A program made the translations under genes and the position numbers. Below, piece by piece: positions 55,974-59,127 of a stretch of 64,000 nucleotides of DNA. The notes beneath the pieces are model-generated. The model ran no database searches. It worked only from the letters and a program-made list of their open reading frames with translations, and had not been told where the DNA came from. Source of the DNA: an uncultured Alphaproteobacteria bacterium (GTDB lineage Bacteria > Pseudomonadota > Alphaproteobacteria > Rhizobiales > Hyphomicrobiaceae). The stretch covers positions 53,672 to 117,671 of the forward strand of contig CAVYPA010000002.1 in the NCBI GenBank assembly GCA_963770295.1. The letters are read 5' to 3'. Each line of letters begins with the position of its first letter. The stretch's first letter is position 1.

Positions 55974-58259
55974 CTAATTTTTTGACCCTACGGGTTTGAC
56001 GCCGTTGTAATGAGCCTGCGCAGTTTGAGCGGCGACGTCGTAGGGCCACTTGTTCATGCTTCGGCACCAAGTGGGCGGTTCGGCAGGGAGATAGTAGACC
56101 AGGCGCTGCTCGGGCGTTAGGCAGCGGGGCACATCGGCTTTGGCGCGATCAACGAGATCCTGGTTTTTCATAAAAGAGTCCCAAACACGCGCTGTGGCGT
56201 CGGCAGAGAAGGTGAGTATGCGCCCGCCGTCCTGGGAAAAGACTGCGTCATTCACCGACCCGGTGTGTCCTTCGAGCCTACCAAGTGGCTTGCCCTCAAT
56301 GTCCCACACGCGTGCGGTACCATCGGTGGAGGCGGTCAATATGCGGCCTCCATCTTGGGCAAACGCCGCCTTGGTGATCTTGCCCGCGTGGCCCAATAGG
56401 GTTGCCATCAGCCTACCTTCGCGGCTCCACAACCGCGCCGTCTTGTCAGCGGAAGCAGTTAGAATGCGGCGTCCATCGGGGGCAAACACCGCACCATAGA
56501 TCGGGCCAGTGTGACCCTGCAGTACGGCGAGAAGCCTGCCGTCAGCGTCCCATAACCGGGCCGTCGCATCGTTTGAGGTGGTCGCAATGCGGCGGCCATC
56601 CGGAGCAAAAACCGCGCTGGTGACTTTGTCCAAGTGCCCTTGCAATGTAGTTACCGGCTCGCCATCACGATCCCACAGCCGTGCGCTACCGTCCGCGGAG
56701 GCGGTGAGGATGCGTCCATTGTCCGGGGCGAACAGCGCACTAGTGACCGGGCCCGTATGACCCTGCAGCGTGGCCAGCGGTCGACCATCACGGTTCCAAA
56801 GTCGCGCAGTACCATCGACGGAAGCCGTGAGAATGTCGCTCGTCTGCGTGGCAAATACTGCGCCGGTGACGGGGCCCGTGTGGCCCTGCAGCGTGGCCAA
56901 GGGTCTGCCATCGCGGTCCCAAAGTCGCGCAGTACCATCGACGGAAGCCGTGAGAATGGCGCTGATCTGGGTCCCAAATACCGCGCTGGTGACGGGGCCC
57001 GTGTGCCCTTGGAGCGTGGCGACCAGCTCGCCGTCGTCCTCCCATAGTCGTGCCGTGGCGTCGTCCGATGCGGTCACGATCCGTCGATCGCCGGGCAAAA
57101 AAAGCGCGCTTTTTACCGGCGCCGCGTGACCTTGCAGTGTAACTTGCCGTTTGGGGTTGCGATCCCAAAGCCTAGCCGTCTTGTCGAAAGAGGCGGTTAG
57201 GATACGGTGCCCATCAGGCGTGAATACCGCATTGTAGACCAATCCTGCATGGCCCTGTAGCGTTGCAAGCGCCTTGCCCTCACGATCCCAAAGCCGTGCC
57301 GTGGCATCATCCGACGTGGTCAGAATATAGCCGCCATCGGCTGAGAGCTGTGCGCTGTTGACCTTGTCGGTATGGCCTTGCAGAACCGCGATCGGCTGAC
57401 CATTAGAGCTCCAAAGCCGTGCTGTACCATCCGCAGAGGCCGTCAGTATGCGGGTACCGTCAGCGGCAAACGCGGCGAAGCTAAGGGGTGCCGTATGGCC
57501 CTCCAGCTTGATTGCTGACTTGCCATCGCGGTCCCACACCCGCGCGGTCTTATCTGTGGAGGCGGTTAGGATGTTGCTCCCGTTGGGGGAAAATACTGCG
57601 CTAACTATCGGACCCTTGTGGCCCTGCAGGATGGCGACCAGCGTACCGTCGTGGTGCCACACCCGCACTGTCTTATCAGTGGAGGCGGTCAGGATCGTAT
57701 TACCGTCAGGCGCAAATACTGCGCTGGTGACTACTCCCTTGTGACCTTGCAATGTGAAAAGCAAGGTACCATTGCCGTCCCAAAGTCGCGCGGTACCATC
57801 CCAAGAAGCAGTCAAGATGCGATCACCGCCTGGTGCAAACACTACGCTGCTGATTGGGGCAGTATGACCCTGCATGATGAGGAGCTGTCTGCCGTCGCGG
57901 CTCCAGAGCCTGGCCGTCCTGTCATCGGACGCTGTAAGAACGCGACCTCCGTCAGGAGCAAACGCACCACTAGTCACAATGTCGGCGTGGCCACGGAGAA
58001 TCGCGAGCAAGTTGCCGGCGGGGTCCCAAAGCCGCGCCGTCTCGTCTGCGGAGAAGGTCAGAATGCCGCTGCCATCTGGCGCGAATGCGGCACCCAAAAC
58101 CGAACCGGTGTGCCCACTAAGGATCTTTCGCTCGCGCTGGTTTTGCAAACCGATCTGGGCAGCGCGCCACGTTTCATTCACGAATGGTCGTGAACGTTGT
58201 CTTTCATCGTCTGACATTTCGTCTCGCAGGCCTTCCAGGGCGAGCAGGGTCCCCAGCAC
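55974..58259 (-). CDS. 16x WD40-repeat region plus Cys-pair tail; most likely the C-terminal part of the TIR protein upstream, separated by a frame change
   Basis: After a 45-aa lead-in ('[13 protein letters not shown]...') there are sixteen consecutive repeats of exactly 41 aa, consensus '[41 protein letters not shown]'. The tail is '[28 protein letters not shown]'. No SD and no ATG at its 5' end. Confidence 0.85.
   Translation of the reverse strand: [761 protein letters not shown]
56157..58124 (-). repeat. Array of 16 in-frame 123-bp (41-codon) WD40 coding repeats
   Basis: Exact 41-aa periodicity. Units 10 and 11 (56772-57017) are almost identical and share an identical core of about 40 nt, 'ccaaagtcgcgcagtaccatcgacggaagccgtgagaatg'. 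Confidence 0.9.
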
Positions 58260-59127
58260 CGAATTCTGCTGCAGTGTGCGCAGCCTGATCAGCGCGAAAA
58301 TAGGAGTCCGCCTTCAGGCCTTCGCGAAAGTTGCGTTCGATTTCGCGTTTGCTGGCTTTCACGAGTGCAATCTGCTCTTGCGTCGCCAGTAGCTTTTTCT
58401 CGGCATCGTCTTTCTGGCGCAGGGCATCTTGCTGTTGGGACAGAACATGATAGCCAGCGCCGCTGACCACGGCTGCGCACACTAGGAGCGCAAACACGCC
58501 GATCCGCATGATCGACCTCCTACGCCCAGACGCATCAACTTTCGCGCTTAGCTCCGTCGCGGCACCGACAGACGCCCCGGCATTTCGGGCAGGCATTTCC
58601 TGAGGGCGCTTGCGTTCGCCGTCGAAGTCGCGACCTCCCTGCTGATCTCCTGCGGTGCGCAGCAGTTGCGAGTAGCCAGGTCGAGCGTCAAGATCCGCAG
58701 TGAGTGCGACACCGAGGCGCTGCAGACCAGCGCCGAATCCAGAACCGGGCGACTCTCTGTCCGCATAGAAAGAGATCCTTTCAGGACCTCTCGCCCGGAC
58801 TGGCGGGCTGATCTGATCGAGCGGATGGCAAGTTACGCAGACGGTACGCTTACCAAGGCGTGCCGCCTCTTCGAGTTCCCAGCGGCAGATTTCACTCGTC
58901 GCCGAAGCTGACGACACCACGCACACGACCGCCTCAGATTCTTCAATGAGCTGGCCGAGCCTACGTTGCCAATCGTCAAGGCCTAAAATCCTATCGCGGC
59001 CAGCGGTGATGGAAAACCCACCATAGAGCAGAGCTTTTTCAAGCTGATCTGCAAAATCAAAATCGTCCCGGGAGCAAGAGATGAAGACCCGCAGCCTCCC
59101 GCTGGCCGTCCCAGTGGCCTTGGACAT
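58204..59127 (-). CDS. TIR domain, single TM helix, coiled-coil protein (N-terminal part of a TIR-WD40 protein)
   Basis: '[28 protein letters not shown]...[33 protein letters not shown]' is a TIR_2-like domain. The TM is '[28 protein letters not shown]'. The charged helix is '[37 protein letters not shown]'. Confidence 0.8.
   Translation of the reverse strand: [307 protein letters not shown]

Follow-up and report, generated by a model that had tools for sequence, protein, structure and literature searches.

The two overlapping reading frames at 55974-59127 on the minus strand of the window (the whole stretch of 64,000 nucleotides that was analysed) are one gene, split by a one-nucleotide insertion at 58265. 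We put at about even the chance that this locus encodes a type-II, single-pass inner-membrane protein, a stand-alone TIR sensor and effector with a WD40 ectodomain. Its features are listed here in the direction of transcription.

59128-59389, minus strand: conserved upstream region of about 220-260 nt that travels with the gene (orthologue comparison)
55974-59127, minus strand: whole gene, ~1050 aa without the extra A; as sequenced, ORFs of 307 and 761 aa
58693-59094, minus strand: TIR domain, aa 12-145, with the family-specific PGSGFGAGL motif (Pfam, AF2, Foldseek)
58876-58878, minus strand: Glu84 codon (in 'WELEEA'), at the site that the catalytic Glu occupies in NAD-cleaving TIRs
58525-58692, minus strand: low-complexity linker, aa 146-201, predicted cytoplasmic (pLDDT <50; dN/dS 0.5-0.77; alignment A1)
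58516-58524, minus strand: three-Arg cluster (RRR, aa 202-204) N-terminal to the membrane helix, where the chain is predicted to be cytoplasmic
58441-58512, minus strand: single hydrophobic transmembrane (TM) helix, aa 206-229 (Kyte-Doolittle; AF2 helix)
58303-58440, minus strand: charged, coiled-coil-like stalk helix, aa 230-275 (AF2)
58265, minus strand: extra A, GAATTC versus GATTC, which shifts the frame (alignment to L001 and to in-frame orthologues)
58122-58302, minus strand: helical cap ahead of the propellers, conserved with nSTAND1-TM-WD40 proteins; the frameshift lies inside it
56154-58121, minus strand: 16 WD40 repeats of exactly 41 aa each (Pfam and repeat register)
55977-56153, minus strand: post-propeller tail with a motif ending in ..KWPY (dN/dS 0.04-0.09)
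56121-56123, minus strand: Cys713 of the second ORF (~Cys1002 of the corrected protein), first of a conserved pair
56064-56066, minus strand: Cys732 of the second ORF (~Cys1021 of the corrected protein), second of the pair

Reading frame, selection and genomic context

The ORFs 58204-59127 and 55974-58259, recovered at exactly these positions, lie in different frames and overlap by 56 nt. Alignment placed the frame break where the window has GCAGAATTCGG and the L001 contig, 99.7% identical, has GCAG-ATTCGG; other relatives continue through the junction in one frame, over an uninterrupted segment of 26 residues. The L001 assembly itself is clearly error-prone. With the insertion, no 1050-aa protein can be made from the sequence as given. 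The frame-corrected protein of ~1050 aa proposed in an earlier note on this DNA is what the single-frame orthologues have, whereas the window gene itself is disrupted by one nucleotide. The module order given there (TIR, TM, coiled coil, 16 WD40 blades, two-Cys tail) was found unchanged, with every feature in its place.

Interrupted in this way, the window copy is either a recent pseudogene or the product of an assembly error. A dead gene would have no function, or would yield at most a 307-aa TIR-TM-stalk stub and a WD40 fragment without anchor whose translation begins at an internal GTG, and we hold this to be a serious possibility, only a little short of even. Besides the extra A, independent lesions in close copies (L036 has an in-frame stop; P0003, P0005 and P0007 have indels) are consistent with it. 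They count against the favoured reading and point either to frequent loss of the gene or to noisy assemblies. The window also holds a frameshift-split NMO gene (46905-47985) and an ABC_sub_bind fragment. These too would fit gene decay, but because a second gene of the same window is split, an indel error of the assembly is equally likely. Leaving the single base aside, the window copy matches at 99.7% identity a relative whose frame is intact at this position, and it has no further stops. The gene in relatives is under purifying selection, which argues against the dead-gene reading: overall dN/dS was ~0.21, with 0.18 for the WD40 part. Five intact orthologues (L002, L035, L037, L038 and L041) read in one frame over aa 1-1040/1045, so that the gene is a single ORF in relatives and not dead in all of them; L034, 94% identical, stays in frame up to its contig end.

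The orthologues (80-86% nucleotide identity) occur in different contexts, and only the gene and about 130-260 nt upstream of it are common to all. This upstream region carries a Shine-Dalgarno sequence (GGGGGGAG), a weak promoter-like pair TTGCAC-16-CATAAT and an inverted repeat GGCGTGGTGG...GCCACGC; it gave no Rfam match and no strict sigma-70 match. Comparison of 32 loci revealed no conserved neighbour gene, in agreement with a protein that has no conserved partner. The window flanks are housekeeping genes and, as the earlier note had stated, include no SIR2, Macro, cyclase or other known TIR-system partner; the locus lies in no evident defence island, and neither phage hallmarks nor other phage-related evidence were found, which counts against the favoured reading. 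Such surroundings would also suit a role outside conflict, in envelope homeostasis, signalling or cell-cell recognition, with the TIR as an interaction or NAD-linked regulatory module, and so would the relatives, which come mostly from soil Hyphomicrobiales and Hyphomonadaceae, groups with complex envelopes and life cycles. We consider this improbable, since C-terminal hypervariability, patchy distribution, context-independent mobility of a single gene, plasmid copies flanked by IS elements and repeated inactivation all mark conflict genes.

TIR domain, membrane helix and orientation

The N-terminal bacterial TIR domain seen in the earlier note was supported by a significant match to TIR_2 (aa 14-120, E 8.2e-14, 52.6 bits versus a cut-off of 28), and both the 'VFISCSRDD' strand and the 17-residue Glu-bearing segment are present in ORF 58204-59127. 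The AF2 model covers aa 10-145 at pLDDT ~80-89, and Foldseek matched it to the TIR domains of MyD88, SARM1, SPARTA and TIR-STING. In a profile alignment Glu84 coincides with the Glu of SARM1 'HKEIV', which we take to be the catalytic E642, and with the Glu of the TLR motif 'YEL'; it is invariant in alignments A2 and A5. The catalytic-type Glu of NAD-cleaving TIRs is thus retained, and the domain is predicted to be of this type, with a putative NADase activity. On the other hand, the TIR of the window subclade evolves faster (dN/dS 0.18-0.38) and 'SYSR'-type motifs are degraded in some orthologues. The TIR could then serve in scaffolding instead of catalysis, which counts against the NADase reading.

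The Arg cluster, hydrophobic helix and coiled-coil-like stretch follow one another as described before, and AF2 models aa 225-289 as one uninterrupted long helix (pLDDT 74-86). The TM helix reaches a 19-residue Kyte-Doolittle maximum of 2.19; this hydrophobicity is only moderate and counts against the topology reading. Pfam found 16 WD40 stretches (E 2e-161) in ORF 55974-58259, arranged with perfect regularity (16 x 41 aa), so that the sixteen blades claimed earlier are all there. Blades 10 and 11 share 87% nucleotide identity, and the variable positions are common to the repeats and to the orthologues. No part of the gene is under stronger constraint than the tail, whose motif also occurs in L002, L003, L008, L044 and several family representatives. 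The tail's Cys713 and Cys732, confirmed as the sole Cys after the TM helix, are possibly disulphide-bonded. As a sign of a periplasmic disulphide the pair alone is weak: it belongs to a tail motif conserved in this WD40 module generally and, because it also occurs in WD40 proteins of unknown location, the tail leaves the bond unproven. What stood of this argument is a parity across the wider family, in which the Cys count after the TM helix is even in 38 proteins and odd in 15 (p=0.002).

We favour a predicted type-II topology with the TIR inside (N-in) and the WD40 part outside (C-out). Three lines favour it, namely charge bias, envelope-type C-terminal domains and the even Cys counts. Family members have 423 Lys and Arg residues in the N flank of the TM helix versus 279 in the C flank, with the N flank richer in 69 of 74 informative members and poorer in 5 (p=2e-15). 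Domains found downstream of the helix include M23, S8, lysozyme-like, trypsin, CHASE2 and PBP-OB; in L003 a Peptidase_M23 directly follows the WD40 part, and WP_174012738.1, an Agrobacterium plasmid protein, is annotated in RefSeq as a peptidoglycan DD-metalloendopeptidase. Cys density after the helix is half that of the N-terminal part. For the N-in/C-out topology of the earlier note the evidence is now stronger than it was there.

The same helix could instead be an anchor, a re-entrant segment or an oligomerisation element of a tethered, fully cytoplasmic receptor whose WD40 part senses intracellular phage proteins without an NTPase switch. GH-WD repeats of the canonical kind are known mainly from cytoplasmic proteins, and soluble STAND-WD40 or Avs-like receptors, classically cytoplasmic sensors, detect intracellular phage proteins. 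The helix lies between nSTAND1 and WD40 in L044 and P0018, where by the conventional mechanism the sensor would contact the NTPase directly, and caspase and GAF domains are also C-terminal in the family. That a 16-blade array of ~820 aa is exported and folds in the periplasm is a prediction yet unproven and likewise counts against the C-out topology. Nevertheless, we regard a cytoplasmic receptor as unlikely in view of the strong positive-inside bias, the even-Cys bias, a Kyte-Doolittle value of at least 1.9 in 65 family members and the peptidase, lysozyme-like, CHASE2 and PBP-OB domains after the same helix, with M23 even directly after WD40.

A TIR-TM-variable family and the proposed function

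An exhaustive HMMER search with a TIR plus helical profile (E<=1e-30) returned 3,497 cluster representatives. They follow the plan TIR, juxtamembrane helical module, one TM and hypervariable C-terminus, with W83, E84, E87 and PGSGFG invariant; examples are WP_174012738.1 (Agrobacterium tumefaciens pAtCG920) and the loci L003-L028. One TM lies ~100-125 aa past the helical motif in at least 80 of the top 150, and among 114 representatives with the helical-module motif, 83-86 have an equivalent helix. WD40 is the commonest C-terminal module (46/150 top representatives, ~30%), next to Sel1, TPR, Trypsin_2, FGE-sulfatase, caspase, DUF900, CHASE2, PCB_OB, S8, M23, lysozyme-like and GAF. The window protein is a derived member that lost the juxtamembrane module: the ~65 aa 'WLREHTRLLxRAxEW...' is replaced in the window clade by the fast-evolving, disordered linker. 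No description of the family was found in the literature and it is apparently undescribed; its members look like stand-alone envelope sensors. PADLOC gave no named system beyond generic TIR similarity, in keeping with the earlier note, but the locus does belong to this very large family.

The favoured reading, a membrane-spanning sensor and effector in one protein without partner genes, combines the predicted topology, the putative disulphide and the NADase activity with presumed activation by clustering and a presumed immune role. Cytoplasmic TIR, flexible linker, TM, periplasmic stalk and cap, 16 blades and two-Cys tail would follow each other along the chain. The variable periplasmic propellers may bind a ligand at the envelope, candidates being a phage or competitor component or a product of envelope damage. 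Ligand-driven clustering, assisted by the stalk, would unite the TIR domains. Hydrolysis of NAD+ or production of a nucleotide signal by these domains would follow, and growth would stop, in an abortive-infection logic.

The logic could also run in reverse, with the TIR (and helical module) as signal receiver or oligomerising switch and the variable C-terminus as output at the envelope, where peptidases and cell-wall hydrolases would cause lysis and WD40, TPR or Sel1 scaffolds would recruit or trap envelope proteins. Trypsin_2, caspase, DUF900 hydrolase, S8, M23 and lysozyme-like domains are effector-typical enzymes, and conflict-system proteins carry the same domain set at a variable 'effector position', as listed by Kaur et al. 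2020 (PMC7159879). However, the WD40 members, the window protein included, have no enzyme at the C-terminus to serve as output, the TIR keeps its catalytic-type Glu without exception, and repeat arrays with hypervariable surface positions suit recognition more than output. We give this reversal a small probability.

Comparison with known systems

Among the closest counterparts are TIR-nSTAND1-WD40 proteins, bacterial NLR-like STAND conflict proteins (nSTAND1 is Pfam PF20703; clade name from Kaur et al. 2021, PMC8195603). They too begin with a TIR, and the TM, the cap ('ESxFRAEQA..LLALEGLPD..RPFV'), the repetitive WD40 part (43% identical) and the CLTxEQR..WC..KWPY tail are homologous to those of the window protein; hhalign of the helical/TM/cap region gave a probability of 98% (E 3e-13). 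L044 consists of TIR_2, nSTAND1, helical module, TM, cap, WD40 and a CLTREQR..WC tail, and the P0018 fragment, an nSTAND1 C-terminus, continues into the same hydrophobic helix, cap and first blade. The earlier statement that STAND-bearing TIR-WD40 proteins are soluble therefore fails for these two closest relatives examined. Unlike them, the window protein has no NTPase, and its TIR comes from a different subfamily with the PGSGFGAGL motif; domain searches found no NTPase or P-loop domain in it or its orthologues, as had been claimed for the stretch between its modules. With the unnamed TIR-helical-TM-variable family it shares the TIR subfamily and one TM, but the window clade has no helical module.

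Thoeris (ThsB), CBASS TIR, SPARTA and Pycsar have the TIR fold and the conserved Glu in common with the window protein, whose TIR gave weak ThsB and SAVED-TIR profile matches. The window locus, however, has no ThsA, SIR2, Macro, cyclase, Argonaute or SAVED partner; its protein is instead predicted to span the membrane and has its own sensor domain.

Toll-like and IL-1 receptors have an outer, repeat-built recognition domain, one TM and a cytosolic TIR that is active on clustering. The predicted plan of the window protein is alike and its TIR fold matches those of MyD88 and TLR. The ectodomain/TM/cytosolic-TIR parallel drawn in the earlier note is limited by the reversed orientation (N-in type II, no signal peptide), by WD40 in place of LRR or Ig repeats and by adaptor partners, which Toll-like receptors have and the window protein does not. 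Moreover, because the catalytic Glu is retained, an enzymatic output is probable, as for SARM1 or the TIRs of bacteria and plants. Common descent of the two architectures is unsupported, and the likeness is analogy only.

Finally, prokaryotic metacaspases and EACC2-caspase proteins also join a TM to variable WD40, TPR, Sel1, FGE-sulfatase or CHASE2 C-termini (Asplund-Samuelsson 2012, PMC3501461; Kaur 2021, PMC8195603), and for a metacaspase-TM-CHASE2 protein the role of a membrane receptor has been put forward explicitly. The TIR version is not described in the published surveys consulted. The design is the same, with a cytoplasmic death-type effector, a TM predicted to run from inside to outside and the same C-terminal repertoire, but their effector is a caspase, whereas that of the window family is a TIR.

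The split TIR-WD40 gene

Both overlapping open reading frames that the earlier note had described on the minus strand are present, and together they make up one frameshifted gene:

58204-59127, minus strand: ORF1, 307 aa, with the TIR domain, the membrane helix and the stalk
55974-58259, minus strand: ORF2, 761 aa, with the WD40 repeats

The two ORFs lie in different frames and overlap by 56 nt. Compared with L001, a metagenome contig 97.7-99.7% identical to it, the window has one A too many, at position 58265 (GCAG-ATTCGG in L001 versus GCAGAATTCGG in the window), and a 1050-aa ORF results once this base is removed. 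Relatives are continuous in one frame across the region that is split in the window. Orthologues with 75-96% protein identity were found in soil metagenomes and in one Hyphomicrobiaceae MAG; a single frame runs over residues 1-1040/1045 in L002, L035, L037, L038 and L041, L034 (94% identical) is in frame up to the end of its contig and L036 carries an in-frame stop. Comparison of the corrected window gene with four orthologues gave a Nei-Gojobori dN/dS of about 0.21 overall, with values of 0.18-0.38 in the TIR domain, 0.5-0.77 in the linker, about 0.18 in the WD40 part and 0.04-0.09 in the tail. From this low dN/dS we therefore conclude that the gene is functional in the lineage. Programmed frameshifting was rejected, because a slippery sequence is absent at GCAGCAGAATTCGG and the orthologues are all in frame there.

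Functionality in the lineage is to be set beside the rival explanation that the window copy is simply dead. The lesion may be biological or an assembly error, and the local copy, frameshifted as it stands, may be inactive, which for the window itself is the more modest outcome. The genes for amidohydrolase, ABC ATPase and permease, broken into fragments in L001, are whole in the window, which suggests that the window sequence is of better quality than that of L001. A second split gene was observed 10 kb from the TIR gene:

46905-47985, minus strand: nitronate monooxygenase (NMO) gene, broken by a frameshift, with overlapping ORFs at 47194-47985 (profile positions 3-156) and at 46905-47534 (profile positions 154-331)

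This split suggests indel errors of the assembly or decay of genes in the region; it bears on how the frameshift of the TIR gene is read, as does an ABC_sub_bind gene of which a fragment is left in the window.

The domain order put forward in the earlier note, TIR, TM, stalk, 16 WD40 repeats and a tail with two Cys, was recovered by Pfam, hydropathy and AF2, and both profiles named there for checking scored over threshold. In ORF1 Pfam TIR_2 (PF13676) matched aa 14-120 with 52.6 bits (cut-off 28, E 8.2e-14). An AF2 model of ORF1 built on 13 sequences was confident for the TIR core at aa 10-145 (pLDDT about 80-89), and Foldseek with the modelled domain returned the MyD88 TIR at a target-normalised TM-score of 0.75, in agreement with the flavodoxin-like TIR fold, together with the TIR domains of SARM1, SPARTA and TIR-STING (E about 1e-5 to 1e-4). 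When the family profile was compared with TLR and SARM1 TIR structures, Glu84 ('WELEEA') aligned with the Glu of SARM1 'HKEIV', which we take to be the catalytic E642; Glu84 is invariant in the alignments A2 and A5. The motifs PGSGFG(A/S)GL and WE(V/L)EEA of the family are both present, with columns invariant in A2. HMM, fold and conserved Glu thus all place the protein in the TIR domain superfamily, and as judged from the alignments it carries, in the alpha-C region, the conserved Glu of NAD+-cleaving TIR domains, the NADase activity itself being predicted.

Between the TIR domain and the TM lies a low-complexity linker (aa 146-201), disordered in the AF2 model at aa 147-198. It is followed by a hydrophobic segment at aa 206-229, preceded by RRR and with a Kyte-Doolittle 19-residue maximum of 2.19, over which AF2 placed a helix (aa 199-223) that gives way to a long helix at aa 225-289 (pLDDT 74-86). 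In ORF2 Pfam WD40 (PF00400) matched 16 stretches (E 1.9e-161), making the protein a WD40 member with 16 repeats over threshold. The register of 16 x 41 aa is kept without deviation, G3, H4, T22, S24, D26, R30 and W32 are invariant, and the blade positions that vary among repeats are also those that vary among orthologues (Spearman 0.76). One pair of blades stands out:

56743-57020, minus strand: blades 10 and 11, with 87% nucleotide identity and a 123-nt period

This similarity indicates that the blades were recently duplicated or underwent gene conversion; other highly repetitive WD40 sensors show the same. The single-sequence AF2 model of ORF2 (mean pLDDT 46.9) is too poor for a propeller count or for Cys-Cys geometry. 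The sole two Cys after the TM sit in the C-terminal tail.

The protein family and its genomic context

A scan of one genome per species with the TIR part as query gave 32 loci, mostly from Hyphomicrobiaceae and Hyphomonadaceae, with a few from Burkholderiales and one from Verrucomicrobium. Their common plan comprises the same TIR subtype (W83, E84 and E87 invariant, with the PGSGFG(A/S)GL motif), a helical module of about 65 aa ('D..WLREHTRLLxRAxEW..GR...LLxG.DI..A..W...P'), a coiled-coil, one hydrophobic helix at about aa 245-320 and a locus-specific C-terminus. The module, in the form 'D..W.RxHTRL..RA.EW...LL.G..I..A..W', is absent from the clade of the window protein, which has the fast-evolving disordered linker instead.

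Domains found by Pfam after the TM at scanned loci
WD40: L003 (with Peptidase_M23) and L008 (with PDZ)
Sel1: L005
TPR: L007
FGE-sulfatase: L016 and L032
Peptidase_S8: L022
Phage_lysozyme: L018 (marginal, 23 bits versus a cut-off of 22.3)

By sequence inspection, WD40-like repeats are also present in L002, L014, L017, L019, L021 and L025. Family size was taken from an exhaustive HMMER search with a profile of the TIR domain and helical module against 1.84 billion cluster representatives, which gave 45,074 matches at E<=1e-3; word-indexed homologue searches, capped at 8000 candidates, had yielded at least 18 and 11 matches, fragments for the most part. The window protein is not an orphan but belongs to a family with 3,497 representatives at E<=1e-30. 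Of the best 150 representatives, nearly all cover almost the whole of the 207 profile positions, and at least 80 have a single hydrophobic helix 97-134 aa beyond the motif of the helical module. WD40 repeats were found in 46 of these 150; in the 69 non-WD40 members that were scanned, Pfam counted Sel1 (18), TPR (about 13), Trypsin_2 (7), FGE-sulfatase (4), Peptidase_C14 (4), DUF900 (3), CHASE2 (2) and PCB_OB, GAF and others (1 each). The family to which the window protein belongs is thus very large, and its most frequent C-terminal module is WD40.

Tandem arrangements were also observed. About 35 of the best 150 representatives (P0029-P0042 and others) contain 2-8 stretches of the TIR and helical module, mostly with one hydrophobic helix after the last copy, as in P0029 with 8 stretches and a helix at about aa 1499, and many of them end in cyanobacterial-style 'CxWLxxYL...DRxLC' tails. 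Another member, WP_174012738.1 (977 aa; L045 5965-8898, NZ_CP116698.1), is encoded on plasmid pAtCG920 of a cultured strain of Agrobacterium tumefaciens. It consists of a TIR-like domain, helical module, TM, divergent propeller, Cys-pair tail and M23 peptidase, and its RefSeq name, 'peptidoglycan DD-metalloendopeptidase family protein', reflects the M23 part alone. The gene lies among IS66 and IS701 transposases on the conjugative plasmid and offers a convenient experimental entry point.

One flank of the window gene holds an ABC/Bmp-type transporter and an amidohydrolase, the other SnoaL, GNAT, DedA/VTT, NMO, SDR and M16 peptidase genes; no TIR-system partner was found among them. The lack of partner genes reported in the earlier note was borne out for these flanks and for the neighbours at the 32 loci. 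A conserved partner gene was rejected, as an all-vs-all comparison of those neighbours returned only WD40-containing ORFs as recurrent, some of which are probably parts of the same gene cut off by a frameshift. Orthologues at 80-86% nucleotide identity adjoin unrelated genes and have in common with the window only the gene and about 130-260 nt upstream of it:

59128-59389, minus strand: upstream stretch of about 220-260 nt, conserved among orthologues in otherwise unrelated contexts, with an inverted repeat (GGCGTGGTGG..GCCACGC) and a promoter-like TTGCAC-16-CATAAT

This stretch gave neither an Rfam match nor a strict sigma-70 match, so that no regulatory RNA or strong promoter was found in it; it may be a regulatory region that travels with the gene. 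A self-contained accessory gene behaves in this way.

Further observations concern the surroundings. Collinearity between L001 and the window extends only from 64000 down to 54743 (L001 14383); the divergence beyond this point marks a rearrangement or insertion, some 1.2 kb downstream of the TIR gene. Three other ORFs were noted:

55216-55623, minus strand: 135-aa ORF directly downstream of the TIR gene, no Pfam match, also called in L001 (13503-13910), not kept beside more distant orthologues
49036-49395, plus strand: ABC_sub_bind fragment, 119 aa, profile positions 144-237 of 293
40812-41744, plus strand: 310-aa ORF with a sub-threshold Sel1 match (26.6 bits versus a cut-off of 30.7), probably unrelated to the TIR gene

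In L002 the TIR orthologue is followed, about 1.2 kb downstream, by a full-length 324-aa ABC_sub_bind homologue (14295-15269), and the fragment in the window may be a remnant of a common ancestral context.

Membrane topology

The placement of the TIR domain inside and the WD40 part outside, proposed in the earlier note from the charges around the helix and the Cys pair, stands as a prediction from absent signal peptide, charge bias, domain types and Cys parity. These four independent indications point alike, as does hydropathy, and favour a single-pass protein with the N-terminus in and the C-terminus out. The N-terminal 200-300 aa or so hold the TIR domain without a signal peptide, and catalytic TIR domains use cytosolic NAD+ as substrate. 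Over 86 representatives, K+R amounted to 423 in the 15 residues before the helix versus 279 in the 15 after it, with an excess on the N-terminal flank in 69 proteins and the reverse in 5 (binomial p=2e-15); the genome-scan set gave 103 versus 69. The window protein likewise has a single TM between the TIR domain and the variable C-terminus, with positive-inside bias.

After the helix the family carries Peptidase_M23, S8, Trypsin_2, lysozyme-like, PCB_OB, CHASE2 and Sel1 domains, most of which are types that act in or at the envelope, and M23 lies immediately downstream of the WD40 part in both L003 and WP_174012738.1. Beyond the helix the number of Cys is even in 67 of 82 members (38 even versus 15 odd among non-zero counts, p=0.002), and Cys density is half that of the N-terminal part. 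Against these figures has to be weighed the rival explanation of a cytoplasmic WD40 part, with the hydrophobic helix a mere anchor. A disulphide would be compatible with the conserved Cys pair in the tail; taken alone the pair is weak evidence, because such a pair is also found in WD40 proteins without known location.

Proposed mechanism and comparison with known systems

On computational evidence, the observation made in the earlier note is confirmed and its interpretation partly supported. With the WD40 part placed outside, we infer a stand-alone receptor-effector across the inner membrane, in which periplasmic propellers would bind an envelope-located ligand and clustering via the stalk would bring the TIR domains together in the cytosol, to be followed by NAD+ hydrolysis or signal production. 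Oligomerisation is needed to form the active sites of SARM1, plant TNLs and bacterial TIR effectors. The constant TIR module could also be the input and the variable C-terminus the output, a rival explanation with more appeal for members that carry a peptidase or hydrolase than for those with WD40 repeats.

Taking the receptor-effector reading further, we consider it possible, with little confidence, that the family represents widespread unrecognised bacterial transmembrane pattern-recognition receptors. Such receptors would combine one TM with a TIR NADase in the cytosol (a TIR-STAND NTPase in sister lineages) and a fast-diversifying recognition domain in the periplasm (WD40, Sel1, TPR or FGE-sulfatase). 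They would detect attack by phage or competitors at the envelope, ahead of genome entry or while it proceeds, and would respond with NAD+ depletion without partner genes. A role of the protein in envelope signalling unconnected with conflict is a further rival explanation. If the receptor proposal is true, these proteins would be functional analogues of Toll-like receptors, in clear convergence with those of animals, and the STAND versions would be 'transmembrane NLRs'. To our knowledge, known bacterial TIR immune proteins act in the cytoplasm or need partner genes; if one polypeptide links a fast-evolving repeat sensor in the periplasm, across one membrane helix, to a TIR domain in the cytosol, bacterial innate immunity would extend to envelope sensing. 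The family idea is directly testable because the family is large and modular and has intact members in cultured strains, as on the Agrobacterium plasmid.

The absence of an NTPase claimed in the earlier note was upheld, since Pfam and NCBIfam returned no P-loop STAND or other NTPase family for the window protein and the motif GxxxxGK[ST] is missing from it and from the 32 relatives of the genome scan. It is hence not a STAND/NLR-like member, unlike the protein of the homologous locus L044, which has nSTAND1 (8e-75). The accompanying statement that TIR-WD40 proteins of STAND type are soluble fails for the two closest relatives examined, L044 and the protein homologue P0018, which have the same helix. 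The order in L044 is TIR_2, nSTAND1, helical module, hydrophobic helix, cap ('SESLFRAEQA..LLAVEGLPD'), WD40 and tail ('CLTREQRRNFQLAAEPPSWC..KWPY'), and P0018, itself a C-terminal nSTAND1 fragment, is arranged alike. It is to such proteins that the TM-stalk-cap-WD40-tail part of the window protein is most similar (43% identity with L044 over aa 294-1030), and hhalign of the post-NTPase region of L044 (helical module, TM and cap) with the family profile gave a probability of 98% (E 3e-13). As far as sequence comparison goes, a juxtamembrane-TM-sensor cassette is common to NTPase-less TIR and TIR-STAND proteins, and the latter raise the question of how an NLR-like switch is controlled across the membrane.

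The likeness to Toll-like receptors drawn in the earlier note holds as logic and does not extend beyond analogy. Toll-like receptors have an N-terminal LRR ectodomain with a signal peptide, a type-I TM and a C-terminal TIR domain, whereas in the window protein the TIR domain is N-terminal, WD40 takes the place of LRR and the orientation is reversed. Similarity to the ThsB_TIR of Thoeris is sub-threshold (19.2 bits versus 21.2), and no ThsA-like neighbour (SIR2 or Macro-SLOG) was found in the window or at related loci, which places the protein outside Thoeris. Assignment to a named TIR system was rejected, PADLOC returning generic TIR matches and a WD40-driven 'HEAT-ARM_XIII' match; NCBIfam has no family for ORF1.

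The nearest published concept found is that of prokaryotic metacaspases and EACC2-caspases, which have TM helices and variable WD40, TPR, Sel1, FGE-sulfatase or CHASE2 C-termini (PMC3501461; PMC8195603), the same C-terminal repertoire as in the TIR family; one of them, of metacaspase-TM-CHASE2 architecture, has been put forward as a receptor in the membrane whose effector lies in the cytosol (PMC3501461). A TIR-TM-WD40 family or its topology is not described in Kaur et al. 2020, Kaur et al. 2021, the TIR survey PMC7075850 or the paper on DGR-diversified sensors PMC10907252, nor was it found in a literature search of a limited library, which is no proof of absence. Bacterial TIR conflict proteins with variable sensors are known; what is new here is the transmembrane arrangement and the size of the family.
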